From IMG/VR virus record IMGVR_UViG_3300017989_000014, positions 1 to 60,867 of that record: a stretch of 60,867 nt of DNA. One strand, written 5' to 3'. This document shows, in pieces, positions 713 to 32,966 of this stretch. The notes under the pieces were generated by a model. It saw nothing but the letters and a program-made list of their open reading frames with translations, was not told where the DNA came from and searched no databases. The stretch is from a virus. Lineage: Duplodnaviria; Caudoviricetes. Both the position numbers and the translations under genes were made by a program. How positions within the stretch are numbered: position 1 is the stretch's first letter; the number at the start of each line of letters is the position of its first letter.

Positions 713-741
713 ACTATAGCGATTTTGGGGTATTGAGTCAA
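713..741 (-). promoter_or_regulatory. Sigma70-type promoter, leftward (terS operon)
   Basis: TTGACT (741-736), 17-nt spacer, TATAGT (718-713). Confidence 0.8.
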
Positions 742-14280: not shown

Positions 14281-17200
14281 CTATTTTCCTTCGAGGTGCT
14301 CCAGGATGGCGTCGTCGAGCGCGTCACTGTCGAACATCGGGGCGGTACGGTTGATCGGAGTGATCTTGTTCGGGTCCCCCAGGAGGTCCCCTCCGTCGAT
14401 CCCGTCGAGCACCCGGCGCTGGCTCTTGGAGGCGTAACGCTTCACGCGGTCTACCTGACTCCCCCAGCGGGTGACGAGAGCGTTGTCCCAGCGGCGCTTC
14501 CAGTAGCCGAACTTGTAGCTCTTCGGGATGTACCCCTTCGCCTTCGCTTCCTTGTAGGCAGCGAGCCGAGCCTTCGCCAGGGCCTTCGAGGATGGCTTCT
14601 CACGGCCGAACGCCTCGATGTGCTTACGGATGGTCTTCCTGGCCCCTTCGCTGTTCCTGGCGTCCATCCTGCCCGCTTTACGGACCTCCGGGTCGTCCAT
14701 CGGGAATTCTTTCCGGTTGCTGAAGCGGATCAGGCGAGAAACGGCTGGCTCGACAAACCACGTGCCCTTGATTCGCTCCTCGAAGTCACCGCGCACCGTG
14801 CGGAGCCCGCTGCGGTTGGCCCGGGCGGTCATTCCGCCGAGCGTCTGGTTCCAGAACCACCGGAAGATGTCCTCGGCTGCGTACTTACCGCCAGCCTCCA
14901 TACGGTTCGGGTCGATGATCGGGCGACCGGTCCACGAGTCGATTGGGTTCGATCCCTGGTTGTATTGCCACGCCACCTGCGCGATCTTGATGACCGGGTT
15001 CAGCCTTGAGAACGGCATCTCACCCTGGAGGAACTTGTTGAAGTTGGTGATGTCCTTGTCATTGATGCTTTCGAACAGAGCCGACAGCGCACCTACAGCC
15101 ATCTCTCCCTGGAAGTCCATCGGGAGGATGGCGTACGCAGCCTCACCCTCCTCCGTGAGCCACAGCGGGATGATGTGCTTCCGGTGCATGTCATGCTTCC
15201 GCACACGCTTCATGATCTCCTGCATCGTCTCCTTCCACTCATCCGGCCAGGGGAGGAGGCCATAAAGGGCAGCGTACTTCAGCGCCATCGGGATGATGTC
15301 GTAGAGCACGGTCTTCACGGCGTACGTGATAGGCGTCTCCTTGACGGTCTCGACAGCCGACTGGATGCCGACCGTCTGCGCGTTGGAGAAGATCCAGATG
15401 TTATTGTAGATCAGGCGCAGAGCCCCGCCATCCCTGAAGTCCGGAGACCCTACGCGCGTGAGGAGCAGGTCCACGATCTTGTCCTCTGGCAGGTCCGTAC
15501 GCTCGCGGAGGAACTTCGCGCCTGCGACCTTCGGGAGCAACTCCCAAAACCTGTTGTAGTTCTGGAGGAAGTTCTTCAGGCCACCGAGCCAGCGCAACGG
15601 GTTCAGCGGGGAGCGCTTTTTGCCCTTCAGCTCCCGTATCTGGTACTCGTCGAACAGGCGCTCTACGCTGCCAGCCTCGTCGGAGCTATACCAGCTCGGC
15701 AGCTTGCCGCGCTTCAGCGCAAGGTAGGGCCTCGCCATACCGTGGCCGCGCCCGGCGATCAGCGCCCGGTTCTCGTACATCCAGCGCACGGTTTCGCTCT
15801 GCTCGCCTCGCACCACGTCTGCCCATGTGTCCGTCCACGCCTTCCCGTAGTACTTCAGCAGGGTCCAGGGACCCTTTACCGCACCAAGCTGCGGAAGCTG
15901 TTTCACGGTGGCCCGGAAGTCACGCTGCGCGTTCCATATCGAGAAGAACGGGTTCATCCCCACGTACATCTCCTTGAACGGTTGCGCGAGCGCCGAGAGC
16001 GTCTTGAATACGACGTCTCCCAGGAACACGTCCTTCGTGAACAGGTCCGCGAGTTCCTTGGGCACGTAGTACCCCTTGATCTGCCCGTTCTGCAGGATCG
16101 TAACCAGGCCCCAGTTCTTATTCCTCGGCTCCTTCGGCTGGCGTACGAACACCTCTTTCTCCACCCAGTCATTTGCCTTCTCATCCCACACCTTACGGCG
16201 TCCGATCGACACCCTGTGGGTCTTGGCTGGCTGGATCTCCTTCATGTCGGTGTTGTTCAGCATCCATTGAATCGTCTTGCGCTTGGCTCGGTTAGCGTAG
16301 CCGTTCATCAGGAGGGACAGGTCCTTCATCACCGTGGCGTCGAGCACGTTCCCGATACCCTCCAGCGTGCCCACCTGCTTGTGGATCATGCCAAGACCCT
16401 CTGACCCGAGGCGATCCTCCAGGAACTTCGTCACGTCGAAGGTCACGTAGTCCTCGTTGGTGAGGATCTTGTCGTAGAGCTTCTTGGTGTACATCCCCTC
16501 CTGAACCAGGACCGGGAAGATGTGGTGCTCGCGAAGCTGGAATAACTTCTTCCGCAATTCCCCGAACAGCGCGTATATCTCGCTGCCTACCCGCTCCTCC
16601 AGGGCTTCATCTGTATCCTTGGCCGTCTCGCCGATGAATCCGCCCGGGTTCCACAACTCTTCACGTTCGGTCCTCGCTCGGCGCAGGAAGAGGTACTTCG
16701 CGAAGTCGACCGGGTCAGCCCCAATCTCTTCCAGCCGGTCAATGATGTCCCGCTTGAAGTCGCGCAGATACATATTGGCCGCTGCGTCCGTGTACGCCAG
16801 CTTGCGCAACTCGACCATCGGGTCCTCGCTTACGCCTTTTACTCCCTGCTCCTTGCGCCACTTGGCGGTCCTCTTGTGCAGAGGCTCTGCCCGGCGGTAG
16901 AAGTTGCGCTTGATCCAGCTCAACGCGCCAGTGAACACAGCTCCACGCATAGCGTGCCGCGTGCGTAGAACCTCCTCGTGGTCGGCGAACATCTGGCCGA
17001 TGTTGTTATCCAGGCGGGCACCACGTGCCTCCCCGCTACGGATGTCCTTCTGGATCTGGTCGTACAGGGCCTTCACCTTGGGCTTCCTGCTCATCCAGGA
17101 CATAATCATACGGTAGGATTTCGGGGCCTTTATGCGCATCGACTCGGGGGCCATCAGCAGCACGCTCCACGCCTCGGCATACAGCTCCACGCTGCTCAGG

Positions 17201-20200
17201 CGATAGGTGTCGTACTTCTTGTCTTCACCGATGTTCCAAGGGTTCCACCACGCCGTCAGGCGCTCCAGCTCGTATCGGATCTCCTCCTTGGTGTAGACGC
17301 CAAGATCGTGAGACGCCTGCTTCATCTTGTCCCGGAACAGCTCTTTCCACATCTCGCGGTACTGGGTGCCTTCCGGCTTGAGGCCCAGCTTCTCCATCTC
17401 GGCCTTGGCCTCAGCCTTGGCTTCCTCGCGCAGCTTCTCCCTGGCCTCCTTGTTGACCTCGGGGTTCTTCTCGTATGCCTCGGGGGTCGCAGCGATCAGG
17501 TCCTTCTGGAACGCAGCGAAGTCGGCAATGCGGCCGAGGATGTTCAGGATGTTGTCCTCTCGAACGATGTTCTCCTTGTCGAAGTAGTCGTTCATGTGGC
17601 CCAGCTCGTGTGCCAGCACCTTCGCGGCCAGCTCAGGGTTATTGATGAGTGCGAACTTCAGCGCAATCTCGGTTTTGCCCTTCTTCGGCACGAAGTGCCC
17701 GAGCACTCCCTTGCCCAGACTATCGGCTAGACGCGGGTACTTGTTGAGCAGGGCCTTGCACAGCATGACCAGCTCCGGCATCTCGACCCGGTACTCCAGG
17801 TCCTCCTGCATCGACCAGGAGCCGACCTCGCGGGCGTCCATGATAGCCTTCGCCTGTTCTGGCGTGAGGGGGGCCTCCGGGCGTCCTCCACCGATCAGGT
17901 CAGCATGGTCGAATCCGTCGTTGAGCTTACCCATGCGCAGCGGCTTCGTGCTCATGTCCGGGCTGGCGTGCGTGAGGGACTCAGTCAGGTCGGCAGGAAC
18001 CGCACCCGAATCCACCTCAAATGCCGGGTGGGTCAGCGCGATCAACTCGACCAGCGATTCCATGTCGAATGCGGGCATGGTCCCGACCCAGGACCTTTTC
18101 GTCTCCGTCATGGCCTCTTCATCAAGAAGGTCCAGCAGACCCTCCGAATCCTTCAGCGCGTTCCCTACCTTCCCCTTCAGCAGCTCCACATTCACGCGCC
18201 CATCGCCGAGCATCAACTCCAACCGCCACGGGCCAGCCGACACAGCGATGTTCAGCACACCGCTGTCATTGGCTCCGTTAATGATCTTCATCAAGTTATC
18301 TTTGTCGACCGTCACGTGCGGTGCTGCCTCGATCTCGTTCTTCGGCTTCACGCCGCGCATCGTGCTGCCGTCTGCCATGGTGAAGTTGACCACCGTCCCC
18401 CCACCACCGAGAGCGATCACCGACGACATCGCCTGGAGTAGATTGCCAGTGACGAGCTGTATGTCGCTGTACTCCTGCCCGCGCCGGGCGTCCCAACTCT
18501 TGCCGATGTCTCTGCGCACTCGGGCGTAGTCAAGGTCCGTTGCCCGGGCGGTGTTAGAGTTCGCTGCGCCTTCGTCTTTGGCGCGGCGCTCTGCAATCTC
18601 TCGCGCCCGGTTGTACATCCAGCTTACCTTCGACCACGGCAGCTTCATGGTTCGAGACGATTTCGGGTCAGCGAAGAACAGGTACACATTCGATCTTGCG
18701 GCGGGGTTGGTGGCGTTCTGGTCTACCTTCACGCCAGTCAGCACCATGCCCATGTGCCACTTGCCGCGCTCGCGGATGTCCGTCTCATGACCCTTCTCGC
18801 TTACGTCGTAGACCGCACCTATGCGCAGCTCTTCCTGTGTGTCACCGTTCAGGAATCTGACGGCCTCACGGATCTGGCGCATTGCCCTGCTGCCCCGAGC
18901 GCCCGTGCCTTCCTTCATCAGCTCACGCGCCCACGGCATGGACTGTTCTTGGATGATACGCAGCGCGGCCGACACCTGCCCCTTGTTCTTCTCGACGCGC
19001 TCCTGTACGTCCTTCCAGGACGGCGGGCGCTTCAGGTTCTTCACTCGATACCACTTCGCCGTTGCGCTGCTCGTAAGAGGGTTGGACTGGTCGCTACCGA
19101 AGGAGATCGGAATCTTGCCCTTATCGGGCAGCTCAACCGCATCCCACTCCAGGTGATACGTCTTGTTCGGGTTGGCGAGATCCTCGTCGAGCTGATCCAT
19201 CTGGTCGAGGTAGGACTGCAACACGCGGTCCCACAGCTTGCGCTGCTCCTTGACCGGTAAGAGGTTGGCCCGCAGGAGTGCTCGCTTCGCGAAACCCTCC
19301 TGCTTATTCCAGGAAGTCTTGGCCATCGTGCCGTCGTCCTGGTAGGCGACGAGCATTTGCTCGCCAAGCTCACGGTCGTTGTTGAACAGGTCCCACACAA
19401 TCCGGTCACCGAACTTGTCGAACAGGTCGACGGACCCGTACTTCAAGCTCGTCTCGGCCTCGGCACTGACGTTGGCGTTCAGGCTAGCCATCTTCTTCAT
19501 GAGCACGCCGTGCGGCCGCAGCTCGATCGGAAGGTGCGTCTGGAGCAACCTGATCTCGGGCAGCTTGATCTGTCCGGAACGGTTGACGCGCCCGAACATC
19601 TGCACCTGGGTGTTCACTTCTTCGTGCGGCTGAATCGTGAGCATGACGCGCTGGTCGTCATTCTGGAACTCCGGTGCGGTGTGCATAGAGACACCAGTCG
19701 AGATAGTCGAGTTGCCTATGACGACACGGAAGTCACCACGGTTGAACCCGTCGATTACGGTGCGCGTGTTGCGCTCCTCTGTCGACCTCGGGACCAGCTT
19801 GCCGTCCTTGATCTTGTTCTTCCTGCCGGACGCTTCAGCGACCTTGATCCCGTTTGCTTCGAGCTGGTCTCGAATGTAGTCGTACGACGAGAATGGAATC
19901 CCCAACTGAGAAGCCTTGACCTTGGCCACTTCCGCCTTGAACTCATCCAGCAGCCCCGCAGCCTTCAGGTCTGCATCCGTGATCCAGTAGATATTGTCCT
20001 TCTTGCCTGCCGCATCGGTGTACGAGAACTGGCGCAGGGTCTTGTTCATCATCCAGACAAGCACGCCGCTGAAGTCGGTCGGGAGCGTCTCCCCGTCCCA
20101 GATACGAGAGTCGGTCATGTCGTCGATGACTGTCTCCATCGTGTTCTGGGTCGTGATGACGAGGCTTCGGTCGCCAGACTCACCCGGTTGATTCAGGTAG

Positions 20201-23200
20201 CGAAGGGTCTCCGCTACCGCTGCGTCCGCCTTCGCAGACAGGAGGAAGTAGTTGACCGTAGTGTGGTACAACTCCTTGTACTCAGCCCAGTTGTACACCG
20301 GCTGTCCGGTCTTCTTGTCGACCTTGATCTTCCCCTCTGCGACCAGCCGTGGTAGCACGATCTTCGAGACCAACTTCTGCAACCTGGAGTCCCAGGCCCA
20401 GATGGCCTTCATACTCACGCCGAGCTTGTCCGCTGCTTCCTCCAGCATCTTCCGCTTCTCTTCGGCCTCCATGTATCCGCTGCTCTCGTACGGCGTGAGG
20501 GGTCCGAACTCGATGCCACTGAAGTCCTTCTCGCGCCTCACCATTTGCCCCTTGAGGGCCAGGGCCTCGGCGATCCACTCCTGCATTGGGACACCGCCAG
20601 CCTCCAGCGCAGCGACGAGGTCGGAGTGGTTCATTCCGACCTTGCCCAACTGGGTCCTGATGTACAGGCCCAGTGTGTCCGGGCGCTTGGCGTACGTGGC
20701 AGACAGGTAGGTGACCCCTTCCGCCCTCGGGTTCTCGCCCGCACCTTCGAGCATGGCCCGCACCATGACCCCGGTGTTGCTGTCAGCGCCAGCAGCCATG
20801 TGGCTCTCGTCCAGGATCATCATGTTGTCCTGCGAGGCAACGGCAAGAAACAGCTTCTTGTTGACCCCACCTTGTGCGATCTGGGAGTAAGTCCCCATGA
20901 CGAGGTCCTTGCCCTCCATGAATGGAGCCTTCACCCCCTGCGTGTACTGCTTGCCGAAGTCTGCCTTCTCTTTCCCGCTCTTCTTCTTGAACAGCACCTC
21001 GGTACCGCCGCTCTCCGGGTCCATAACGTCGACCTCGTTGAGGACGAACGGCACGGGCAGCTTCTTGCCGAGCGCCTTCGATACAGCCTGTAGGTCACGA
21101 TAGATATCGGTGAGCAAGTCCTTCTTCGCTGTCAGGAATATCGGCTTCTTGCCGTTCTTGATCGACCACAGGAGCATACCCGCGCCGATGCGGCCCTTGC
21201 CCGTACCCGTGTCGTCACCGATGATGAGCGCGCCGTCGTTTTCGGTCTGGTACATCGACATGCCGAGCGCGTCGACCTGATGCCCGTAGAACGCGCTGTG
21301 TAACCTCTTGATCGCGGCCTCGTCTGTCCCCAGGCCGAGCTGGTCGGCGACGTATGCGTCGACCGTCATACCGACATCCTTCTCCAGGGCATCGATTGCG
21401 GCGTGGATGGCGTCACGCATGTTGCGCGGGACAAGCACACCGCCTGCCTTGTTCGCGCTGCGTGGCTCGTACTCTACCGTGAAGCTGATACCCTCATCGC
21501 CAAGGCGGTCCTCTTCTGCCTTCTTCTTGGCAGCGGCCTCTTCCTCCGCCTTCTTTTGCGCCTCAGCCTCCTTGGCCTCGGCCTGCTTGGCGTCCGCTTC
21601 TGCGGCCCCTTGCTCCAGCATGTCGACGACGTCCTGCGGAGTCATCTGGCCAACCACACGCGGATCGGTCATCTTCTCACGGATCGCAGCATCGGCGCGC
21701 TTGTAGATCGAGACGTACGCCGACGGCAGGTACGGGGTCGTCCCTTCCCCGAGGTTGTCGCGGAAGACCTTGGCGAAGCGGTAGAAGTCGGTAACGCCCT
21801 TCTCGTTCACGAGACGCTTACCGGCCTGCGCGACCTTCATGAGGATTTCGGGGTCGACGGCGGAAGCCATCGCCAAGCGCCCGCCGGGTCCACGCGGGAC
21901 CGCCATGCTGAAGACATCCTTCAGGTCGTCGAAGATGTCACCGGGGTCTACGTCCCCTTCAGCCACTCCCGGAGTAGATTCGTCCACTCCTGTAGCTGGT
22001 GTACCTCCAGCTTCTCCTCCGGGTTCGGCCGGGCTTTCGGGTCCAGCGGCGTCTCCTTCAGCGTCCCCTCGACCTTCTCCAGGTCCGGCTTCACGTCCTG
22101 TCCCCGCAGCGCCTTCTCCACCAGGGCCTCCATCGCCTGCAGGTTCCGGAATGACTTCAGGACCGCGTCCGACAGGTTCAGCAGGCTTGCCCCCTTCTGC
22201 TGCGCCGGTTCCATCGCCCCTTGGTCCACGTCCACCGGATCGCCCGTCTCCAGGTAATCCCGCAGATCCTGGTTGTCCTGGTCCCTCACCCGGCGCAATA
22301 TCCGTGCCAGCTTGGTCTGGTACAGCAGGCGGTACGGCTGTTCCTTCGGGTTCCCCGGCACGGTCAGCAGGAGATACAGTTCCTCCGTCGGCATCAGGTC
22401 TGGGTGATACCACCAGCTCATCAGTCGCCTCCTTGTCAATAGCACCAGGAAGGTCGAGGTTGACCGAGTCGGCCATCGCCCGCTCGAAGGGGTTGTAGTT
22501 CGTGTCCCCTTCCACCTTCCGCTGCCCTAGTTCACCTAGTATAGGGTTAATCTCGCTTTCAGTCAAGTCCGCGACCCGCTCTGCAAGCCCCTTCTCCTGG
22601 GCCGCAGGGCCAAGGATCTTGCGGGCAATGCTCTCCGCAGCGGTCATCGTCGGCACTTCACCGATCACCATACCGCCCAGCCTGCCAAGTCGAGGCCCGG
22701 TGGTGATGCGAACATCTCCGAGTTCGGTTGGTTTCAGCTCCGCCACTGCTGTCGCGGGCCCGTTCCCGCCATACAGCACGGTCCCGTCTGGTGCAGCGTC
22801 CGTCACGGTGTCTGTCACTGCGGGCAGGTAACGCCCTGCCTCGTCAGGCGGGGCAAGGACCTTCCGCTCCACGAGAGTCTTGAGCAATTCCCCAGCATCC
22901 TGGAACGACGTGCCGGGCGCGATGCGCTGGATCTTCCCCTGCGACAGGTAGTCGAAGTCGGGGCGCTGGACCTCTTTCTCGATTGTCTCTGCTACAGCCT
23001 GGATCTTCTCGGCCTTGTCCTTCGCCGCTGCGGCCCTTATCTCCTCCATGGAGGCGATCTTGTCCACAATCCCCTGTAGACCCTCTGCTTCGGCTTTGCG
23101 CCGCTCTGGCGAAGGCTCAGCCCCCTCCTCGACGGCCTCCAGCCTCTCGTCAAGCTCGGCCTGCATCTGCTCGATCTCGACCCGCTCCGGACCAGGAAGC

Positions 23201-26200
23201 TCGGCAATGGCGTCAGCGACCGTCTTGCGCTTAGCTGCGATGTCCTCTAGCTCGCCCTGTACAGTGGCTCGACGTGCCTCCTCGGCTTCACGCTCCGCCT
23301 GTTCGGCAGCAGCTTTCTCCTCTGCGGCCTTGCGCTCCTCGTAGGCTTCCTGTTTGCCTTCCTGCTTCGCGGCCTTGCGCCGGGCAGTCGCTGCGGCAAT
23401 ATCCTTGGCTCGCTGCTTCTCTTCAGCCGTCTGCGGCTGCTTCACGCCCCAGAACTGGCCTTGCGACTCGTACCCCATTCGCTTGAGGTCTGCGCGCTTG
23501 ATGCCTGCCATCCTCGCGGTGGACTTTTTGACCTGCTGGCCACGTTTCATCCTGCGGGCGAGTTGGACCCTGGCGTCCTTCACGGCCTTATTCCAGATCC
23601 CGTCAGCCTTCTTCGAGTCGCCAGCCGCAAACGCTTCTGCGTATTCCTCGGCCACCTCTCGGTAAGGCATCCACTCCATGGCCATATCGAGCGCTTCCTG
23701 GGCCGTGGATACATTCTCAGGCCCGAGCTGCGAGCTGATACGCGCCTGGAATAAGCGGTCGGCCTCTTTCTTCTCCTGGGCCAACTTCTCCGCGAGTTCT
23801 GCCTGCTCGGCCTCGTACTCCTCCAGCACCGAGTCCTGGCGCTGCTCTTCAGTGAGAGTGTCCGCGTCTTCCCCTGGCTCCATGAACTCTGCCATCGCCT
23901 CGAAGTCGTTACCGAGGCGCAGCTTCTCCTCGTCGCTCATGTTGTCGACGACATCATCTCCCAGGTACCCTTTCAGGTATTCGGACAGCTTCGGGTCAGC
24001 GCCATCAGTGAAGGTAACCTCTACCCTGTCGACTTTCGGAGGCTTCTTCACGTCGGTGGTGCGACGGGCTTCCTTCTTCCAACTGCTCGCAAGCTCTGGA
24101 TTGCGCTCTGCCTCGGCCTCATCGATCTCCCAGCCGTACAGCTTCGCGACAATCATCGGGTCTTCAATAGAGAATAGGGCTTCCAGCTCGAACTGCTCGA
24201 CCTCATCCAGCCCGTTGTTGTCTGCAGCCTTCTTGATAAGGTCGGCCGCACGCCCGTCGATATGGTCTACGACGTCACGCAGTCGCTTCGGGGTTGTCTC
24301 CTTGTTTGCTTCACGGCCGCGCAGAACAGCGGCAAGTACGCCGATGCGCCGTTCGGGCTGCTTCAGCTTGTCCTGGAGAAGCCTCGCGATATCGACAGCG
24401 CGATCCCGCCGCGACGTGCCGTGCGGGCCAACGATGTCTCCGTCTTTGTCGCTGGCGAGGTAGCCGAACACCTTCCCTCGCTCTTCCATGCGCTGCGCTA
24501 GCGGCACGGACCTCCGACGCTCCTCGACCTTGCCCATCCGGCGACCACGGCGCATCTGCTGGCCAGCGCCAGCAACGCCTGGGGTCCCACCGATGAGAGC
24601 GAAGATGCCAAGCTCTGTGAAGTACTGGTCGAGGTCCGTATGCGCGCCGACAAGACGCTCCAGCTTCCCACGCTTGTCTCCGGACGCACGCGGGTCCATG
24701 TTGAATCCGATCAGGATGGAGTCGGCCAAGCGCTCCTCACCGATCTCGAAGAAGATGCCATCGAACCCGCCAGCCTTCAGCGTCCCCTTCGCCCACCGAG
24801 CAGCCTTCGCCTTATTGGCTGCGCGCCAACCATTCGCAATGCGGTTGAGGATGTTGTGGCTCTTGGCAAGACCTGGGACCGTGTCGAACTTGGTGGCGTA
24901 CTTGCCGCTCTGCCGTAGCATCCAGAGAGGCTTGAACAGCATCTCCGAGCCTTCCTCGCCGAAGTTCTCCACGTACTGCCTGAATGCCGCAGTCGCAATA
25001 GCGGCCATCGGCCGGTCATGGAACTCCGAAATGAGCAGCCTGCCGTCATCGGTCAGTTCGTGATCGGACATCATGTGCAGGGCTTCAGCGCCGTACCGGT
25101 GGACCTGCGGCAGTGTACGAAGTCCGGCGCGCCCGCCCCACTTGGCGAACTCCCCGCCGATCCTCTTCATGAGGCCCTTGGCACCAGCCGTCTCAAGGTA
25201 GTCGCGCAACGCCTTGCGTCCGTATCGGTAGGCCCCAGCCTTCAGGGCACTCTTCAGTCCGCTGAACATCCCCATACTGGTGCCGAACTCAACCATGTGC
25301 GGCAGGGAACGCATCACCCCGGAACCCACCTTGGCCGACCGTGTCCACTCGCGATTCGACAACTCCTCGGCCTCTTCCAACCAGTTGAAGATCAACGCAG
25401 CATCCCGCTGCTGCATCGACTTGCCTTGCTCGGTATCAAGGTATGCGTTGTTGATGAACCGGTCGAACACGCCCTTCTTGAACAGGGCCTTGAAAAGCCC
25501 GGTAGGACTCCATGGGATATTGTTGGCGAAGTCGCCGTTCTCCCAGCTCTTCTTGACCAGATCCCATGCGCCGACCGGCTCCATCTGCTGGTACTCTTTC
25601 GGCGTGTAGTCCTTCTTCAGCTTCGGAGCCGCAAACAGCCAGTGGCCATCCTTACCGACACCGCCAGCCGCGTGGTACATTGACAAAGACTGCTGGATCT
25701 TCGCGTCGTTCAGGTTCTGCGCAATCTCCACCAGATCGTCAGTGCCGAAATGCTTCTTCAGGAACTCCGGGTTCTTGATGAGCCGCTCAGGGGGTATGAA
25801 GTTGTCGAACATCCACTGCAACTCGCAGAAGACAGCGCCCTCGGCTTCTGCCCTGGCCATCTCTCGCCCTCTCGCCTCGCGCTCGGCGTTGCGCACAGCC
25901 CACTGGCCGTTGAGCTTCCTGTCGGTCTTGCCGCGAAAGCGCTCGTGGTGGTCGTCATCGAGGAAGGCAGGATGCAGGTCTACATCACCAGCGGACTTCT
26001 GTGGTTCCCACGCCTTCTTGTAGTTCATGCTGAACCACTCGGCCTCGTCTACGGTGGGGAACTGGATTGCGTTGCCGGTCTTCTTCGCGTGCTCGACAGC
26101 CTTGTCGTGCGGAAGCTCTACCAGCTTCCCGTCCTCCCCGGCTACGACTGTCGGGAAGACGATGGCACCCTCGTCCGTCTCGGCGTATGCCATCTTGTGG

Positions 26201-27255
26201 GTCGACACACTGCCGTCAGCGTTCTTGATCGGCTTGTGCTTCTTCGGGTCCAGGATTCTCTGTACGAACGGTTTGTCGCTATGCTTCCCGAGGACCTCTT
26301 TAATACGGTCCTGCTCGCGCCGCTCTGCTCCAGGCTCAGGCAGCGCGCCAGCACGCCATGCACCGCGCCAGTCGTACTTGTAGTTCTCGTCATCTGGATT
26401 CGGATTGATGCCGAGGAGAGCAGCTTTTTCCTCGAAGTCCTTTCGGAAAGCCCTCTCGTCGTCCGGATGCAGCTTCGTCCGTGTGCGCGGCACACCTTCA
26501 CGTGCCTGCTTCTCTGCGAGCGCCATGGCCACGTTCTTCCACGCCTCTCGCTCTTCTGCCTGATACGCGGCAACAGCGTCCCGCAAGTTGGTCGCATTCT
26601 TGAACGCTTCCGAGCTACCCGTAGGCCCGATGGCGTGTGGAGTAATGAGGCGCTGGCCCCACATAGTGGCTTTCCCGCCAAAATTACCTATCGGTCCAAG
26701 GCCGATACTCGTAGAAGGAGTTACCTCCGTCTCGTACTCATACGTCTCAGTGGCCATCTTCTGGATCTCTTCCCAGTTCATGGCCTTCCGGATGTCCAGG
26801 TCTGCGATCTTGCCGTCGATAATCTTGCCTGGGGGCATGTCGAAGGTTTGACCGTCTTTCGTCACAAACCTGTTTCGCCCGTCGATCCAGGCAATCTCAA
26901 CGGGGTCGCCAGTGGTGCTGTCGATATACTTGTTGACGACACGCACAATGCGGTGGGGGTGGTCAGGATGCTTCCAGCGAGACGCCCAATGATGATCCTT
27001 GTCGGTTCTTGGATCTACACCACCCTTCCACGCGCCACGATAATCGTAGTTGCCACGGTCAGGATTTACCGGCTCGTCCAGCTCCTGGTTGACGTCATCG
27101 AGCCAGGAACGGAAGTCGCGCTCTTCATCCAGCGTGAGCGTTGTATTCCACTCATGGTCCGGTCCACGCATCGGGCTGAGGTCGGGAGTCCATTCAATGT
27201 CCGAAGCCTCGCCACCATCTGCGATCCTGGCTTCAACCTCGTCGAAAAAACCCAT
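14281..27255 (-). CDS. Giant polyvalent virion/ejection protein (4324 aa): Strawberry-notch-type SF2 helicase, zincin HExxH domain, LPD38-like C-terminus
   Basis: IIGDDTGTGKGR, MILDESH, YLSATYAKRP, STGVSMH, QMFGRVNRSGQ; VLAHELGH...ELYAEAW; C-terminal NP.IK......N..DSWTGRPI; last gene of the structural operon. Confidence 0.88.
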   Translation of the reverse strand: MGFFDEVEARIADGGEASDIEWTPDLSPMRGPDHEWNTTLTLDEERDFRSWLDDVNQELDEPVNPDRGNYDYRGAWKGGVDPRTDKDHHWASRWKHPDHPHRIVRVVNKYIDSTTGDPVEIAWIDGRNRFVTKDGQTFDMPPGKIIDGKIADLDIRKAMNWEEIQKMATETYEYETEVTPSTSIGLGPIGNFGGKATMWGQRLITPHAIGPTGSSEAFKNATNLRDAVAAYQAEEREAWKNVAMALAEKQAREGVPRTRTKLHPDDERAFRKDFEEKAALLGINPNPDDENYKYDWRGAWRAGALPEPGAERREQDRIKEVLGKHSDKPFVQRILDPKKHKPIKNADGSVSTHKMAYAETDEGAIVFPTVVAGEDGKLVELPHDKAVEHAKKTGNAIQFPTVDEAEWFSMNYKKAWEPQKSAGDVDLHPAFLDDDHHERFRGKTDRKLNGQWAVRNAEREARGREMARAEAEGAVFCELQWMFDNFIPPERLIKNPEFLKKHFGTDDLVEIAQNLNDAKIQQSLSMYHAAGGVGKDGHWLFAAPKLKKDYTPKEYQQMEPVGAWDLVKKSWENGDFANNIPWSPTGLFKALFKKGVFDRFINNAYLDTEQGKSMQQRDAALIFNWLEEAEELSNREWTRSAKVGSGVMRSLPHMVEFGTSMGMFSGLKSALKAGAYRYGRKALRDYLETAGAKGLMKRIGGEFAKWGGRAGLRTLPQVHRYGAEALHMMSDHELTDDGRLLISEFHDRPMAAIATAAFRQYVENFGEEGSEMLFKPLWMLRQSGKYATKFDTVPGLAKSHNILNRIANGWRAANKAKAARWAKGTLKAGGFDGIFFEIGEERLADSILIGFNMDPRASGDKRGKLERLVGAHTDLDQYFTELGIFALIGGTPGVAGAGQQMRRGRRMGKVEERRRSVPLAQRMEERGKVFGYLASDKDGDIVGPHGTSRRDRAVDIARLLQDKLKQPERRIGVLAAVLRGREANKETTPKRLRDVVDHIDGRAADLIKKAADNNGLDEVEQFELEALFSIEDPMIVAKLYGWEIDEAEAERNPELASSWKKEARRTTDVKKPPKVDRVEVTFTDGADPKLSEYLKGYLGDDVVDNMSDEEKLRLGNDFEAMAEFMEPGEDADTLTEEQRQDSVLEEYEAEQAELAEKLAQEKKEADRLFQARISSQLGPENVSTAQEALDMAMEWMPYREVAEEYAEAFAAGDSKKADGIWNKAVKDARVQLARRMKRGQQVKKSTARMAGIKRADLKRMGYESQGQFWGVKQPQTAEEKQRAKDIAAATARRKAAKQEGKQEAYEERKAAEEKAAAEQAEREAEEARRATVQGELEDIAAKRKTVADAIAELPGPERVEIEQMQAELDERLEAVEEGAEPSPERRKAEAEGLQGIVDKIASMEEIRAAAAKDKAEKIQAVAETIEKEVQRPDFDYLSQGKIQRIAPGTSFQDAGELLKTLVERKVLAPPDEAGRYLPAVTDTVTDAAPDGTVLYGGNGPATAVAELKPTELGDVRITTGPRLGRLGGMVIGEVPTMTAAESIARKILGPAAQEKGLAERVADLTESEINPILGELGQRKVEGDTNYNPFERAMADSVNLDLPGAIDKEATDELVVSPRPDADGGTVSPADRAGEPEGTAVPPAVPDQAGTDIAPGEGPGQPGSAGLPGDGRSGGRGPRGDGTGAAEGGKPAEPVGRGPEVIPEPAGDGGPGGEGAAGTGREAGPGEGRGDAEGDAAGPESPAEPGGEAGGTPATGVDESTPGVAEGDVDPGDIFDDLKDVFSMAVPRGPGGRLAMASAVDPEILMKVAQAGKRLVNEKGVTDFYRFAKVFRDNLGEGTTPYLPSAYVSIYKRADAAIREKMTDPRVVGQMTPQDVVDMLEQGAAEADAKQAEAKEAEAQKKAEEEAAAKKKAEEDRLGDEGISFTVEYEPRSANKAGGVLVPRNMRDAIHAAIDALEKDVGMTVDAYVADQLGLGTDEAAIKRLHSAFYGHQVDALGMSMYQTENDGALIIGDDTGTGKGRIGAGMLLWSIKNGKKPIFLTAKKDLLTDIYRDLQAVSKALGKKLPVPFVLNEVDVMDPESGGTEVLFKKKSGKEKADFGKQYTQGVKAPFMEGKDLVMGTYSQIAQGGVNKKLFLAVASQDNMMILDESHMAAGADSNTGVMVRAMLEGAGENPRAEGVTYLSATYAKRPDTLGLYIRTQLGKVGMNHSDLVAALEAGGVPMQEWIAEALALKGQMVRREKDFSGIEFGPLTPYESSGYMEAEEKRKMLEEAADKLGVSMKAIWAWDSRLQKLVSKIVLPRLVAEGKIKVDKKTGQPVYNWAEYKELYHTTVNYFLLSAKADAAVAETLRYLNQPGESGDRSLVITTQNTMETVIDDMTDSRIWDGETLPTDFSGVLVWMMNKTLRQFSYTDAAGKKDNIYWITDADLKAAGLLDEFKAEVAKVKASQLGIPFSSYDYIRDQLEANGIKVAEASGRKNKIKDGKLVPRSTEERNTRTVIDGFNRGDFRVVIGNSTISTGVSMHTAPEFQNDDQRVMLTIQPHEEVNTQVQMFGRVNRSGQIKLPEIRLLQTHLPIELRPHGVLMKKMASLNANVSAEAETSLKYGSVDLFDKFGDRIVWDLFNNDRELGEQMLVAYQDDGTMAKTSWNKQEGFAKRALLRANLLPVKEQRKLWDRVLQSYLDQMDQLDEDLANPNKTYHLEWDAVELPDKGKIPISFGSDQSNPLTSSATAKWYRVKNLKRPPSWKDVQERVEKNKGQVSAALRIIQEQSMPWARELMKEGTGARGSRAMRQIREAVRFLNGDTQEELRIGAVYDVSEKGHETDIRERGKWHMGMVLTGVKVDQNATNPAARSNVYLFFADPKSSRTMKLPWSKVSWMYNRAREIAERRAKDEGAANSNTARATDLDYARVRRDIGKSWDARRGQEYSDIQLVTGNLLQAMSSVIALGGGGTVVNFTMADGSTMRGVKPKNEIEAAPHVTVDKDNLMKIINGANDSGVLNIAVSAGPWRLELMLGDGRVNVELLKGKVGNALKDSEGLLDLLDEEAMTETKRSWVGTMPAFDMESLVELIALTHPAFEVDSGAVPADLTESLTHASPDMSTKPLRMGKLNDGFDHADLIGGGRPEAPLTPEQAKAIMDAREVGSWSMQEDLEYRVEMPELVMLCKALLNKYPRLADSLGKGVLGHFVPKKGKTEIALKFALINNPELAAKVLAHELGHMNDYFDKENIVREDNILNILGRIADFAAFQKDLIAATPEAYEKNPEVNKEAREKLREEAKAEAKAEMEKLGLKPEGTQYREMWKELFRDKMKQASHDLGVYTKEEIRYELERLTAWWNPWNIGEDKKYDTYRLSSVELYAEAWSVLLMAPESMRIKAPKSYRMIMSWMSRKPKVKALYDQIQKDIRSGEARGARLDNNIGQMFADHEEVLRTRHAMRGAVFTGALSWIKRNFYRRAEPLHKRTAKWRKEQGVKGVSEDPMVELRKLAYTDAAANMYLRDFKRDIIDRLEEIGADPVDFAKYLFLRRARTEREELWNPGGFIGETAKDTDEALEERVGSEIYALFGELRKKLFQLREHHIFPVLVQEGMYTKKLYDKILTNEDYVTFDVTKFLEDRLGSEGLGMIHKQVGTLEGIGNVLDATVMKDLSLLMNGYANRAKRKTIQWMLNNTDMKEIQPAKTHRVSIGRRKVWDEKANDWVEKEVFVRQPKEPRNKNWGLVTILQNGQIKGYYVPKELADLFTKDVFLGDVVFKTLSALAQPFKEMYVGMNPFFSIWNAQRDFRATVKQLPQLGAVKGPWTLLKYYGKAWTDTWADVVRGEQSETVRWMYENRALIAGRGHGMARPYLALKRGKLPSWYSSDEAGSVERLFDEYQIRELKGKKRSPLNPLRWLGGLKNFLQNYNRFWELLPKVAGAKFLRERTDLPEDKIVDLLLTRVGSPDFRDGGALRLIYNNIWIFSNAQTVGIQSAVETVKETPITYAVKTVLYDIIPMALKYAALYGLLPWPDEWKETMQEIMKRVRKHDMHRKHIIPLWLTEEGEAAYAILPMDFQGEMAVGALSALFESINDKDITNFNKFLQGEMPFSRLNPVIKIAQVAWQYNQGSNPIDSWTGRPIIDPNRMEAGGKYAAEDIFRWFWNQTLGGMTARANRSGLRTVRGDFEERIKGTWFVEPAVSRLIRFSNRKEFPMDDPEVRKAGRMDARNSEGARKTIRKHIEAFGREKPSSKALAKARLAAYKEAKAKGYIPKSYKFGYWKRRWDNALVTRWGSQVDRVKRYASKSQRRVLDGIDGGDLLGDPNKITPINRTAPMFDSDALDDAILEHLEGK
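21948..22421 (-). CDS. Nested +1-frame gene (157 aa) inside the giant gene
   Basis: AAGGAGG 6 nt before ATG 22421, dedicated upstream promoter, helical-looking product; coincides with a P/G/E-rich linker in the main frame. Confidence 0.72.
   Translation of the reverse strand: MSWWYHPDLMPTEELYLLLTVPGNPKEQPYRLLYQTKLARILRRVRDQDNQDLRDYLETGDPVDVDQGAMEPAQQKGASLLNLSDAVLKSFRNLQAMEALVEKALRGQDVKPDLEKVEGTLKETPLDPKARPNPEEKLEVHQLQEWTNLLREWLKGT
22538..22566 (-). promoter_or_regulatory. Internal sigma70 promoter within the giant gene
   Basis: TTGACT (22566-22561), 17-nt spacer, TATACT (22543-22538). Confidence 0.75.
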
Positions 27256-28645: not shown

Positions 28646-29803
28646 CTAGCCCCAAGCCATTCCGCTATCTCCGCCCCAGCTCGAACTCCCGGCTGGAGTT
28701 GTTGTCGGGTTCGTGGAAATTTGATATCCACCGTAATCCCCATCCCACGAATCTAGGTAATCTCCTCCGTATCCGATAGTGCCTGAAGCACCGAGGCCGC
28801 TCTGGCTACCGGAAGAGAACTTTTGACCCACCATCCGCCCGGCTTGCCCGCCTACGGCACCACCAGCAGGCCCGCCGAAGTACCAGCCAGCAGCGGTACC
28901 AGCGAGGCCGAAGATGTTGCCCCACATGGCGTCTTCGCTCTGCTGAGCCTGCGCACGCATCGCCATGTCGGTTTCGTACTTCTTCATGGCAAGCTCGGCA
29001 TTCGCAATGGATGCCCTCGTGTTGAGCTGTGCTGCGGTTGCCCAGGCGTTACCATAAATCTGCGCGCCGCGCCCGCCGGTAGCACCGGCTTGGCTCAGTC
29101 CCTCTATGGCCTGCGCCTTCTGCGCCCGCTGTTCCGGGATAAGTGCGCGGCCAAGCTCAATCGCTTGCAGCCTGCGCTTATCGTTGAGGTCACGGACATA
29201 CTTGCGGGCCTGATTCCTCGCACCGGCCTCTGCCGCAGCTCGGGCCACAGCCATCTCCGACTGGGTCGACGCATACTGAGGGCTGGAAGGGTCAAGGCCA
29301 AGGCCGCGCAGTTCACGGTCTCGTGACTGCTTCGCCTTCGTGAAGCTCTGCGTGATGTCCGCCACAGACTCACCGAGTGCTTGCTGGACAGGGAATCCGG
29401 CAAATGCTGCCTTCGTCCATCTCCTCTCCCCGGGGCGATAGTACTTCTTGTATTCCTTCCAGAGGACATCGCTTCGCGTATTAGCCTGCTTCGCGTACTC
29501 GGCCTGCTGCTCCATCAACTCGGAGGCTCGCGTGTAGTAATCCTTGAGTTCCTGCGGAACGGATGCACCAGCAATTTCGATGTCGGGATATTCTGGAGGA
29601 GGTCCTTGCTGGCCACCGCCCATCCATTCTCCGAATTCGCCGAACCAGTCCATCCAGTCCCCGGTAAACTGCGCAGCCTGGATCGGATACCAGTCACCAA
29701 CTACGTCCAGGATATCGTCCCACTGCAGCTTGCCTGACCACGTCTTGTCCCAGAAGTCGTTGAACGGGTCTCTTACATTGTCATCCCACCAATCCCATCC
29801 CAT
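28646..29803 (-). CDS. Putative DNA ejection / pilot protein
   Basis: Ala/Gln-rich helices, RGLGLDPSSP motif, C-terminal glycine zipper WGNIFGLAGTAAGWYFGGPAGGAVGG. Confidence 0.65.
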   Translation of the reverse strand: MGWDWWDDNVRDPFNDFWDKTWSGKLQWDDILDVVGDWYPIQAAQFTGDWMDWFGEFGEWMGGGQQGPPPEYPDIEIAGASVPQELKDYYTRASELMEQQAEYAKQANTRSDVLWKEYKKYYRPGERRWTKAAFAGFPVQQALGESVADITQSFTKAKQSRDRELRGLGLDPSSPQYASTQSEMAVARAAAEAGARNQARKYVRDLNDKRRLQAIELGRALIPEQRAQKAQAIEGLSQAGATGGRGAQIYGNAWATAAQLNTRASIANAELAMKKYETDMAMRAQAQQSEDAMWGNIFGLAGTAAGWYFGGPAGGAVGGQAGRMVGQKFSSGSQSGLGASGTIGYGGDYLDSWDGDYGGYQISTNPTTTPAGSSSWGGDSGMAWG

Positions 29804-30669: not shown

Positions 30670-31032
30670 TTATGCGTCCTCTGGGTCTACGAAGTCGGTC
30701 CTGATAGGCTGACTTACTAGTTGCGCTCCTGAAGAATCGACGATAGGGATGCCAGTCGTGGTCGTGAGGATGAATTGCGTGTACTCGAACTCCGGGTCGG
30801 TGATCGGCGCGATCTCGTCGATTGGAGTGGTGGTGACGGTCTTGTCGTACAGCGTGACATTATCCTCGGCCACGCCGATCAGCCCCATCTCTGTCAGGTC
30901 CGACACCAGCAGGGCTCGGTCTTCCGTAGGCCCGCGCTCGCCGAACAGGACCTCAAGGCGCTCACGCATTGCCTCCAGGATGTCCCTGAGGTTCTTGTCC
31001 TCGATTCGCTGCGGTGACGGTATCCTTCTCAC
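30670..31032 (-). CDS. Tail-associated hypothetical protein
   Basis: L..MRERLEVL.GERG...DRA....DL pattern, located after the tail nozzle gene. Confidence 0.55.
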   Translation of the reverse strand: MRRIPSPQRIEDKNLRDILEAMRERLEVLFGERGPTEDRALLVSDLTEMGLIGVAEDNVTLYDKTVTTTPIDEIAPITDPEFEYTQFILTTTTGIPIVDSSGAQLVSQPIRTDFVDPEDA

Positions 31033-32966
31033 AGGTCCCTCATGCTCGTGCTCATGGTAATCTCGATGATCTCGTATTGCGACTCGACCTCAACCGACCA
31101 GCGGCGCTCGTCACGCTTCACTGGGATACGCTTGGCCCGCTCGCTGGTGAACGTATGCGTCCACACGAGGTCCTCCTCGGCGTAGATACGAAAGATGACG
31201 GGATAGCCCTCGGCCTTCACCTGGGCAACGGAGAAGGAACCAGTCCTGGCATAGAGGAACTGCTTGCTCCTCCATGTGGCCGTCAGAGGGTTGCTACCCT
31301 GGTTCCAGGCAGTGAGCTTCCCATCTTGGATCAGGTAAAGCGTGTCGTCTTCCAGGTTCGCGTGCCCGCCTGTAGCGAGTTGATCGGTTGTGACTAGCGC
31401 TCGCCCGCCAGCCGACGGATCGAATATCAGCGCTGTGCCGTCCGTGAACCAGCAGTGGTATCGGTTGTCATGCGCCTTGGCTATCATCGTCGCAGGATCA
31501 AGCGCCTTCCACTGTTTCTTCGAGTAGAACGACGTCGTGAGCACTTGGCTGTTCGCCCCATTCACGGCAATTAAACCGTCCGGACTTGCGTATATTACCA
31601 AGGCCGCAGCGATATCACCGAACGTAACTACAGACCTCTTGGCCGAACACGCCTGCCTGGAGTTGCTTCGGTCGACGCTCATGTACAGCGGGTCATTCCC
31701 GGTGATGAAATGCGGATGTCCAGTCGTAAGCACGATGACCTGATTCAGCGTGTACGCAATCGCCACGATGTCCTCGTCAATCGTCTTGGCGTAGTCATCC
31801 GGCCATGCGTGCGGGCGGTTCGGCTCCGAGAAGTACACCGTCTTGCCGACGAACCCGGCCATCACTCCGTTCGTGCATTCAATCAGGCCGGTCAGGTCGT
31901 CTGGAGGCCCTTCCCAATCCACGGACGGCAGGATCTCGTTGACGTCAGCGTCCAGGGTTGTGTCTAGATACGACGTCGTCCCGATATCCAGCTCGGTAAT
32001 GAAGAAGTAGGACGTCCCGCTGGTACCAGTCACCGTCCTGTACACCCTGATGTTCGTGATGTTGTAGTCGCCAGTTGGCGCGCCAGGGATATTCGTGAGC
32101 TGGCAATCCTCCGTAGGCTGGATGGCAACCACGGTGGACGGGTCGGAAGGAGGCCCTTCCTCTCCGAAGGCCGAGACATACGTCAGGACGTACGTGCGGT
32201 CTGCGGTGTAGTCAGAGGCCCGGGAGGTGTCGAAAGACAGCCTGAGGCGCGCTGAGGGGTCACCAGACGCCGGATAGCCGATCTTGCCGGTCACCCTGGC
32301 TCCGTTCAGGTAGAAATCGGTGTTCGCTGCGTATACGGAGTTGCTCGGGTAGCACGCACCGAGGTACACGCCCGTCTCGCTGTATGCCTGGAACCACATC
32401 ATGAAGTTGGCGTCGTCGGTGGCGGTCGTCTTCGCCGGGAGCGTCTCGATCTTGAATACCGATAGCTGCGACTGCTGGAAGACAGTCTCTCCGCCGTACT
32501 CGCCCTCTGTCAGGTCTCCCTCCTGGGACACCGTCCCGTCCTCTTCTTCATAAAAATAATACCACGTGCGGGTCCAGGTCGTCTCCAGTGCGTCCACGGC
32601 TTCCACCGTAGGGGGAGAAGCGGGGGCCGGGATGCCAAGCGTGTACTCGACCTCGTTGCCGTCCAGGATGCCACGGACCTTCGGGACTCCGTCCCCGGTG
32701 TAGTAGATTCGGTCGTAGAGGTCCTCAGCGACGGGGCTTTTCACCACATCGACATCCGTTGCCCACTCCAGCCAGTTGCCGTTGTACGGGAAGACTGACA
32801 CCGTGTCGGACTGCAAGTCCTGGATCTCGTTCGGCTCATCGAAAGGAAGGACGGTACCGCCCCAGATATATGCGTTCTCTGCCGTCTGCGCCTGACTGGC
32901 ACCGAGCAAGTTCGGTGCGGCCCGTGGAAGCAGTCCTTCGAATATGCTGATCTTGATCTTAGACAC
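31029..32966 (-). CDS. Tail tubular / nozzle (packaged DNA stabilisation) protein
   Basis: FEGLLPR..P.LL....AQ.A.N, YVLTYVSAFGEEGPPS, FSEP.RPHAWP, YASPDGL, WRSKQF. Confidence 0.75.
   Translation of the reverse strand: MSKIKISIFEGLLPRAAPNLLGASQAQTAENAYIWGGTVLPFDEPNEIQDLQSDTVSVFPYNGNWLEWATDVDVVKSPVAEDLYDRIYYTGDGVPKVRGILDGNEVEYTLGIPAPASPPTVEAVDALETTWTRTWYYFYEEEDGTVSQEGDLTEGEYGGETVFQQSQLSVFKIETLPAKTTATDDANFMMWFQAYSETGVYLGACYPSNSVYAANTDFYLNGARVTGKIGYPASGDPSARLRLSFDTSRASDYTADRTYVLTYVSAFGEEGPPSDPSTVVAIQPTEDCQLTNIPGAPTGDYNITNIRVYRTVTGTSGTSYFFITELDIGTTSYLDTTLDADVNEILPSVDWEGPPDDLTGLIECTNGVMAGFVGKTVYFSEPNRPHAWPDDYAKTIDEDIVAIAYTLNQVIVLTTGHPHFITGNDPLYMSVDRSNSRQACSAKRSVVTFGDIAAALVIYASPDGLIAVNGANSQVLTTSFYSKKQWKALDPATMIAKAHDNRYHCWFTDGTALIFDPSAGGRALVTTDQLATGGHANLEDDTLYLIQDGKLTAWNQGSNPLTATWRSKQFLYARTGSFSVAQVKAEGYPVIFRIYAEEDLVWTHTFTSERAKRIPVKRDERRWSVEVESQYEIIEITMSTSMRDL

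Follow-up and report, generated by a model that had tools for sequence, protein, structure and literature searches.

An overlooked gene family in the +1 frame of the linker preceding Strawberry-notch helicase domains, and its putative divergent member in a giant phage gene

Small genes embedded out of frame in longer ones are familiar from phages, as in the Rz/Rz1 spanin genes of phage lambda, where the whole of a small gene is contained in the +1 frame of a larger one and has a start of its own. In the usual course of overprinting, it is the new frame that shows atypical codon usage. Viral overprinted genes have been reviewed (PMC8227390), and approaches to their detection in single genomes have been described (PMC6188560). 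A second relevant system is formed by the giant 'polyvalent proteins' of phages and plasmids, which include a DNA methylase-helicase dyad with DarB of phage P1 as its archetype and which are thought to accompany the DNA of the phage or plasmid on its delivery and to disarm the defences of the host (Iyer et al., 2017; PMC5512222). Both kinds of system bear on the locus considered here. The DNA under study is a complete viral record of 60,867 bp with direct terminal repeats (IMG/VR record IMGVR_UViG_3300017989_000014; Caudoviricetes), which is called the window throughout, this term referring to the whole stretch. Its giant gene of 4324 codons encodes a polyvalent-type protein that carries a Strawberry-notch (Sno) helicase, and inside this gene, in the +1 frame of a low-complexity linker located ahead of the helicase, lies an open reading frame (ORF) of 157 codons. 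We regard this ORF as probably a genuine gene, and as a putative divergent member of a previously unannotated family of small acidic proteins that are encoded at the corresponding place in related giant genes of phages, plasmids and bacteria.

Coding signals in the embedded frame

The initial annotation of this locus had proposed a dual-coding unit, and the sequence elements on which it was built were all recovered: the Shine-Dalgarno (SD) sequence AAGGAGG six bases ahead of the ATG at 22421, the +1-frame ORF ending in a TAG stop (21950..21948), with a translation that agrees with the one quoted, and a host frame (frame 0) that over the same 158 residues is rich in G (43), P (24), A (22), E (17) and D (14). 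The ORF is contained entirely in another gene, in a different frame and with start signals of its own, and its product is acidic, with an isoelectric point (pI) of 5.04. The combination of SD and ATG found at its start is unique in the 13-kb giant gene, where the remaining four of five SD-plus-start sites use GTG; AGGAG-like motifs precede the start in most genes of this phage. The ORF had also been said to end just before the helicase, which needs correction: its end lies ~160 codons before the helicase homology begins (residue 1929) and 240 codons before the Pfam match to AAA_34 (residue 2008). Note also that the nested start lies within ACTGATGAGC (22417-22426, minus strand), where a tandem TGATGA stands in the third frame, its first TGA overlapping the ATG by one base. 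This arrangement resembles the stop-start junction of translationally coupled genes and may be a relic of a fusion of the upstream part through the small gene.

By itself, the open +1 frame is not significant. The linker consists of GNN and CCN codons, so that few stops occur in its +1 frame, and this frame was stop-free in 15% of 20,000 simulations in which the linker amino acids were fixed and synonymous codons followed the usage of the genome. Codon usage, on the other hand, is decisive and lies far beyond chance. When the entire giant gene is scanned in sliding windows, codons 1600-1750 are the single place at which frame 0 is surpassed by another frame. Over the nested region, the codon log-odds are +0.83 bits per codon in the +1 frame and -0.60 in frame 0, which reaches +0.88 gene-wide, and among all ORFs of the genome the nested ORF (0.85 bits per codon) scores like the real genes. 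The synonymous usage of the frame-0 linker is inverted, GAA:GAG being 15:2 as against 23:77 in the genome, and GGA making up 24 of 43 glycine codons as against 12%. The corresponding synonymous-usage score is -0.41 for frame 0 and +0.46 for the +1 frame, with a mean of 0.26 (standard deviation 0.10, minimum 0.07) for thirty-one other genes; by simulation, frame 0 departs from typical usage at z = -12.5 and the +1 frame at z = +1.3. The signal has sharp limits as well. The maximal +1 coding segment (148 bits, 22409..21954) equals the ATG-to-TAG span within four codons, the 35 open +1 codons 5' of the nested ATG score negatively, and the next best +1 segment anywhere in the 13-kb gene reaches 9.8 bits. 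Of the synonymous recodings of the nested protein, only 0.8% are free of stops in frame 0, and therefore frame 0 is also maintained. The DNA appears to be under selection in the +1 frame for its protein, with the host frame also held open as a little-constrained spacer. Since the embedded frame has native usage and the host frame is atypical, the small gene is the constrained reading and the linker its passenger, and the small gene is probably the older of the two.

The initial annotation had also placed a promoter inside the giant gene, and a sigma-70-like site, TTGACT-N17-TATACT, is indeed present on the minus strand at 22566..22538 with 10 of 12 consensus matches, its -10 element stopping 117 bases 5' of the nested ATG. 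Promoter-like sites number 2 in the 14-kb region (2.6 expected from shuffled sequence), and those with at least 10/12 matches number 2 genome-wide on both strands (2.0 expected), which is the chance level; in favour of the candidate, only 1.2% of equal-sized segments of the giant gene score as well. Among the family loci described below, 6 of 45 have a comparably unusual upstream site (5% level), the median background fraction being 0.68, so that a promoter-like site is not a feature of the family. The candidate does not define the nested-gene system. An internal promoter in the window phage, from which the small protein would be expressed independently of the late operon, is plausible, if in our view somewhat doubtful. 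Because the ATG and the SD-like motif are the conserved start features, the arrangement would fit internal initiation on the giant gene's own mRNA. The other site with at least 10/12 matches, TTGACT-N17-TATAGT at 741..713 (minus strand), lies in an intergenic gap between divergent gene blocks, before a leftward operon, and this placement of the only other such site also speaks for the candidate; 3' of it a short ORF begins at ATG 683, and its TGA stop overlaps the ATG of the next gene at 511.

A family hidden in related giant genes

Relatives were taken from the best 80 of 508 viral loci encoding a related helicase and from the best 80 of 560 bacterial genome loci, and a +1 island was called where the coding score upstream of the helicase reached at least 20 bits. 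Such an island is present in 44 of the 80 viral loci, always in the +1 frame, with synonymous z values from -1.3 to -16.7 in frame 0 and from -4.1 to +2.2 in the +1 frame. A relative with a related capsid, phage G005, has a Sno gene of 5957 codons with a 66-bit +1 island directly upstream of the helicase; this island starts, as in the window, with AAGGAGG-N6-ATG, and a TTGACA-N17-GATATT site lies upstream of it. The codon-usage test is weaker at low GC, where an open-frame test keeps its power. The latter was applied to giant Sno genes in which frame 0 extends over at least 450 codons ahead of the helicase, 74 in number when the window's own gene is counted. A stop-free +1 run of at least 100 codons stands just upstream of the helicase in 67 of them, being the longest such run of the gene in 39 and among the top three in 58. 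Where the GC fraction is 0.50 or lower, the run is found in 28 of 30 genes (it ranks first in 24), as against none of the 30 in the +2 frame. The +1 frame is open in nearly all homologues, the reverse of the interrupted frame that would speak against a gene.

The peptides encoded in this frame are conserved. All-against-all BLASTP of the 45 peptide pairs gave E < 1e-3 in 83 of 990 comparisons for the +1 frame and in 22 for frame 0, and wherever a comparison reached at least 35 bits (70 of 70) the +1 score exceeded the frame-0 score. Substitutions are distributed over +1 codon positions 1, 2 and 3 as 0.32, 0.29 and 0.39 (67 pairs), and as 11/12/33 and 13/11/29 in the two closest informative pairs. 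Silent and replacing codon changes stand at 23:19 in the +1 frame and 5:36 in frame 0 for loci L085/L089, and at 24:18 and 5:35 for L080/L105. The +1 product is the more conserved one in 11 of 12 pairs, the exception being a pair with five base differences only. These sequence comparisons indicate that in the relatives the +1 product is under purifying selection. ATG is the start of 39 of the 45 nested ORFs, and an SD-like motif is found at -17..-4 in 23 of these 39, compared with 12% of other +1-frame ATGs (p = 6e-12). The median pI of the 45 nested proteins is 4.55, and 44 of them lie below 6.

Iteration of the profile brings together 50 of 83 sequences, and no hits came from 106 +2-frame controls or 187 shuffles. 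When all six frames of 81 viral sequences were searched with it, every one of its 50 matches stood ahead of the helicase in the +1 frame. The same is true of all 9 matches of a second, Bacteroidota-type profile, 59 of the 81 sequences being matched in total. Of the 80 bacterial loci, 31 gave a match, each again in this frame and place, in Betaproteobacteria, Pseudoalteromonas, Enterovibrio, many Cyanobacteria, Desulfovibrio piger, Phocaeicola coprophilus and others. The six-frame search detected the family nowhere else in the ~20-kb loci. In many relatives the nested gene lies between methylase and helicase (consensus of alignment A3). The family is one of small acidic helical proteins of ~90 to 160 residues, encoded in the +1 frame of the linker that precedes the Sno domain, and it occurs in phages, plasmids and bacterial chromosomes. 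The idea that other giant proteins carry the same domain in frame was considered and rejected, the family models finding no copy in 36 giant proteins (all scores under 8 bits). Further +1 islands were seen in the giant genes of loci L058 (101 bits at codons 7-80 and 80 bits at 647-710), L056 (51 bits at 640-726), L094 (44 bits, ~1500 codons after the helicase start), L072, L079 and L049; they may represent additional hidden genes, or else artefacts that arise from stop-to-stop extension. The giant gene of the window has no further +1 island above 11.5 bits.

Judging from its sequence, the nested protein of the window is a divergent member of this family. A profile of 17 relatives built without the window protein scores it at 18.0 bits (E = 3.8e-4), and a 23-sequence profile at 20.2 bits (E = 1e-4), the best of 2000 shuffles reaching 11.2 and 10.6 bits, respectively. 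The protein is collinear with the family over its full length (MSWWYHP..., LTVP, the central helix, the C-terminal L-x-x-L-L, ...LQEWTNLLREWL). The family motifs are an initiator ATG a few residues before W-x-P and a C-terminal L-x-x-L-L-E-like motif, in an acidic protein, and the window protein shares them, with W-x-x-P instead of W-x-P. Its ORF lies at -310..-162 codons from the helicase start, in the +1 frame and inside the limit of ~450 codons upstream, and its codon usage (z = +1.3, as against -12.5 for the host frame) agrees with membership. Searches that started from the window protein gave no relatives: phmmer returned 0 hits among 1.84 billion representative proteins, there was no Pfam match and no credible PHROGs match (best E = 0.4), the ESM Atlas gave no usable match, a back-translated peptide scan of viral contigs gave none, and Foldseek with the single-sequence model found no match.

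The expectation that standard gene callers would discard such an ORF is borne out. Among 5.8 billion protein clusters, only four called relatives were found, on contigs that measure 1.2 to 2.5 kb or have no length on record. The cultured phage BS-TP4 (PQ571277.1), which has a known host, Bacteroides salyersiae, carries a Bacteroidota-type nested ORF (L124:8549-8911) inside gp3 as a 121-codon run, the longest of 250, and the deposited annotation consists of a 5391-residue hypothetical protein only. On plasmid pAQ6 of Picosynechococcus sp. PCC 7002, the nested ORF (L207:2408-2959; 184 codons, the longest of 88; profile E = 2.5e-7) lies unannotated inside SYNPCC7002_RS15125. The methylase of pAQ6 is a separate upstream gene, and a RelE/ParE toxin-antitoxin pair stands between it and the Sno gene.

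Fold, predicted partner and rival explanations

With a 25-row family alignment, AlphaFold2 gives a compact, mainly helical model of the family (predicted local distance difference test, pLDDT, 89.5; predicted template modelling score, pTM, 0.82), and a fold predicted with such confidence is not expected of a non-coding frame. The family has no Pfam match, its model has no Foldseek match in the PDB at an E of 0.001 or better and none in BFVD, and the best VIA Z against solved structures is 3.2. No domain other than the Sno motor is found with the nested gene in every case, and for this reason the nested protein of relative L072 (127 residues) was modelled with its own helicase region (790 residues), with an alignment for each. 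The runs gave interaction prediction scores from aligned errors (ipSAE) of 0.82, 0.72 and 0.85 (median 0.82), and all three controls gave 0.00; at least 76% of the contacts agreed between runs, and the partner pLDDT was at least 82. In the calibration of the tool, the same mark was reached by 58 of 80 solved complexes and by 2 of 110 mismatched pairs, counts that hold approximately here because custom alignments were used. In the model, the nested protein lies between the two lobes of the motor, in contact with T83 of Walker A, E207/H209 of DESH, A236/T237 of SAT, TGR 513-515 and Q594, positions that fall on motor motifs I, II, III and VI. The model thus supports a putative binding of the L072 nested protein in the cleft of the helicase motor and, by analogy, the Sno motor of the window is the predicted partner of the window's nested protein. 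Of the functions offered in the initial annotation, that of an inhibitor or chaperone of the co-encoded helicase gains support from this model, at the level of relative L072, and superinfection exclusion gained none.

In the mechanism that we favour, ribosomes would start at AAGGAGG-N6-ATG inside the mRNA of the giant gene, with a second mRNA possibly coming from the TTGACT-N17-TATACT site in the window phage. The nested product would dock between the two lobes of the motor, in the cleft of the helicase whose coding region follows directly, and would act in trans as a regulator of the motor, most likely as a brake or a loading chaperone, its coding position just 5' of its target on the same mRNA being one that may favour co-translational capture. 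A more specific and more tentative version is that of a 'safety catch', by which the separate acidic protein made from the same mRNA would plug the DNA/ATP cleft of the nascent helicase, keeping the motor inactive or chaperoned up to its delivery into a new cell; we consider this version possible, on the doubtful side. If it were true, the overlap would serve to load the regulator onto its target co-translationally and one to one, and the safety catch would be conserved across Proteobacteria, Cyanobacteria and Bacteroidota.

Several points weigh against a motor-regulating gene in the window. The link of its product to the family rests on a weak profile match (E ~1e-4), and pairwise comparison with the nested protein of G005 (BLASTP and Smith-Waterman) is not significant, from which it follows that the link is real but distant. 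The ORF lies ~150 codons farther from the helicase than most of its counterparts, and the nearest relative's helicase is 43% identical, which leaves the window without a close relative. No variants occur inside the nested region in four runs, and no RNA run is listed among those holding the window sequence. The single-sequence fold of the window protein is all-helical with a mediocre pLDDT of 60, and the absence of a matching fold or family gives no hint of a biochemical activity. The complex is that of the L072 pair and is a prediction, and conservation in the nested protein is no higher at the interface than at its other residues (Mann-Whitney p = 0.87). Finally, in cluster 1 of the relatives the ATG and the SD-like motif are placed inside conserved host-frame codons (W-E-x-V-Y), and could partly be by-products of these.

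A competing explanation accepts the gene and denies it any tie to the helicase: its product would be an anti-defence factor, a DNA mimic directed at enzymes of the host or a protein expressed early from a promoter of its own, and the overlap would be a frozen packing accident. The acidity of the family (44/45 with pI <6) would equally suit a DNA mimic acting against host restriction enzymes, good promoter-like sites lie upstream in the window and in three relatives, and the unremarkable conservation of the interface, together with the lack of any structural relative that links the nested protein to helicases, would also agree with such a function. The strict position just 5' of the Sno motor (50/50, 9/9 and 31/31 matches) speaks against an unrelated function, however, and so does the L072 complex as modelled (0.82 versus 0.00 for the controls); we hold this explanation to be rather unlikely, without being negligible. 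It is improbable that the segment is a fossil, which formerly had its +1 frame translated, within the giant protein or as a gene in its own right, and was then displaced by a compensated frameshift or fusion, so that frame 0 alone is translated now. Codon usage does record past as well as present selection, the window copy has no close relatives or variants that would show current constraint, and the out-of-frame TGATGA that overlaps the ATG in ACTGATGAGC looks like an old two-gene stop-start junction. Yet the ORF, its ATG, the perfect SD and the N-terminal W-x-x-P are all intact, the arrangement persists among relatives that share no more than 30 to 40% identity in the helicase and in which purifying selection still acts on the +1 product, and none of 36 giant proteins holds an in-frame copy.

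Recoding, by which the giant protein would enter the +1 frame and return from it through two programmed frameshifts, the segment being a domain of the giant protein, appears very improbable. A conserved and foldable +1 segment alongside a filler-like frame-0 reading would agree with it, but frame 0 is open through the segment in all giant genes examined, low-GC genes included, in which 130 open codons do not arise by chance (the chance for the window is 0.8%), and the family has a conserved initiator ATG (39/45), SD enrichment and a stop of its own. We know of no precedent for two programmed shifts in one gene. Barely credible, lastly, is an untranslated by-product of chance, in which the +1 frame of a Gly/Glu/Ala/Asp/Pro linker happens to read as a Leu/Glu/Lys/Gln/Arg-rich, helix-like sequence. 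A +1 frame that is stop-free in 15% of simulations, a 60% GC genome rich in long shadow ORFs and a count of promoter-like sites at the chance level are all compatible with it; this explanation is nevertheless already contradicted by the atypical synonymous codons of the linker (z = -12.5) next to typical +1 codons, by a coding signal bounded by ATG and stop, by a frame that is open in 28 of 30 low-GC relatives versus 0 of 30 for the +2 frame, and by +1 peptides that are conserved, under purifying selection and predicted to fold at pLDDT 89.5. The initial proposal of a dual-coding unit is upheld by codon usage, by the SD and ATG, by the conserved family with its purifying selection in relatives and by the confident fold. 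We therefore come back to the reading preferred at the outset and consider it fairly probable that 22421..21948 is a genuine gene inside the Sno gene, a divergent member of the unannotated family, and that its product regulates the motor.

Genome setting and comparison with known systems

The window has a GC content of ~60%, and its minus strand carries nearly all genes (Table 1). The giant Sno gene is located directly downstream of genes for virion and internal virion proteins. Pfam assigns to its product AAA_34, the Sno N-terminal NTPase (residues 2008-2251, E = 1.3e-15), and Helicase_C_4, the Sno C-terminal domain (residues 2471-2624, E = 5.3e-14); with these two domains in 4324 residues and in a phage genome, it qualifies as a Sno helicase of the polyvalent type and agrees with the description of giant polyvalent proteins from phages and conjugative elements (PMC5512222). 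No Pfam methylase match was obtained for it. A HELGH motif (HExxH, metallopeptidase-like) occurs in its C-terminal third, at ~17600-17800 on the minus strand, in the stretch ...KVLAHELGHMNDYF..., for which no Pfam family matched at an E of 0.01 or better. As for relatives of the giant gene, blastn gave no match among cultured phages, tblastn returned three distant records, and the best match of a word-index search was 41% identical and covered the helicase only, the linker being covered by none. The helicase is absent from three of four larger related-capsid phage records.

Table 1. Positions of the embedded gene, its host gene and other annotated features of the window.
Feature	Position	Strand	Basis
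Nested +1-frame gene, 157 codons plus TAG	21948..22421	-	ORF, codon usage, family profile
Shine-Dalgarno AAGGAGG, six bases 5' of the nested ATG	22428..22434	-	Sequence
Sigma-70-like promoter candidate TTGACT-N17-TATACT	22538..22566	-	10/12 consensus matches
Host-frame (frame 0) G/P/A/E/D-rich low-complexity linker, residues ~1612 to 1769	21949..22422	-	Composition
Giant host gene, 4324 codons, polyvalent-type, Sno helicase	14281..27255	-	ORF list and Pfam
Sno helicase motor	19384..21471	-	Homology from residue 1929; Pfam matches
Virion structural protein	28646-29803		PHROGs
Internal virion protein	31029-32966		PHROGs
Major head protein	48409-49293		PHROGs
Portal	51481-53583		PHROGs
Terminase	53848-55380		PHROGs

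Contigs from three Logan runs, one of them from a different study, span the nested region with 0 differences and 0 gaps; since these independent contigs agree, assembly indels are unlikely, and an indel error of the assembly was rejected as a source of the overlap. Elsewhere in the giant gene, runs X1 and X2 hold a minor contig with 21 differing positions in 156 bases (25997-26152, in the N-terminal part), a pattern suggestive of a hypervariable patch or of a strain that co-occurs, and runs X3 and X4 hold a minor contig that lacks three bases (two plus one) at 21211-21214, in frame and near the start of the helicase domain. The summed contig depth is about doubled in bins 17269-17735 and 23807-24273 in all four runs, and contigs run into unrelated sequence at 24187 and 24219, which suggests segments in common with other elements of the same samples.

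The finding points to a conserved partner protein that annotation has overlooked, at a locus where the short embedded frame, and not the long ORF, carries the selective signal. Low-complexity linkers of giant genes can hide real genes, and a simple per-frame scan of codon usage can reveal them. Two culturable systems, phage BS-TP4 and strain PCC 7002, make the hypothesis directly testable.

The host gene resembles those of other polyvalent proteins in being giant and multidomain and in encoding a Sno/SWI2-SNF2-type motor (PMC5512222). The main text of that paper contains neither 'overlapping' nor 'frameshift', and hence the nested gene is not described there; it is also undescribed in the literature searched, subscription journals being outside the coverage. 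Nor is it universal among methylase-helicase and Sno proteins, as P1 darB has no +1 coding island (maximum 8 bits) and the Sno gene of plasmid pND6-2 has none either, its +1 run being R/S-rich junk. Like overprinted viral genes, the locus would hold two proteins in two frames of one DNA stretch, with one of the readings low-complexity or disordered (PMC8227390; PMC6188560). It departs from the usual form of overprinting in that the embedded frame has native usage and the long host frame is the atypical one.

A further comparison is suggested by the predicted activity. Ocr and ArdA are acidic DNA-mimic inhibitors, and Chd1 is an SNF2-type remodeller with autoinhibitory acidic helices. Like these inhibitors and helices, the nested proteins are small, acidic and helical, and that of L072 is predicted to sit on the nucleic-acid-binding surface of an enzyme, across its conserved motor motifs. 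No similarity in fold or sequence to a solved structure was found for the family and, unlike for Ocr and ArdA, the target would be the element's own helicase and not a host enzyme. The closest parallel in gene arrangement is that of Rz/Rz1, in which the embedded product likewise works with the product of the host gene, a relation that in the present family is predicted for relative L072. Differently from Rz/Rz1, the host gene here encodes a virion-type polyvalent protein in 4324 codons, and it is a disordered linker that the overlap spans; differently from the lipoprotein Rz1, the embedded protein of the window is cytoplasmic, acidic and helical. Embedded out-of-frame phage genes, of which Rz/Rz1 are an example, are thus known as such, and what is new is a conserved and widespread family of them in the linker of Sno proteins.

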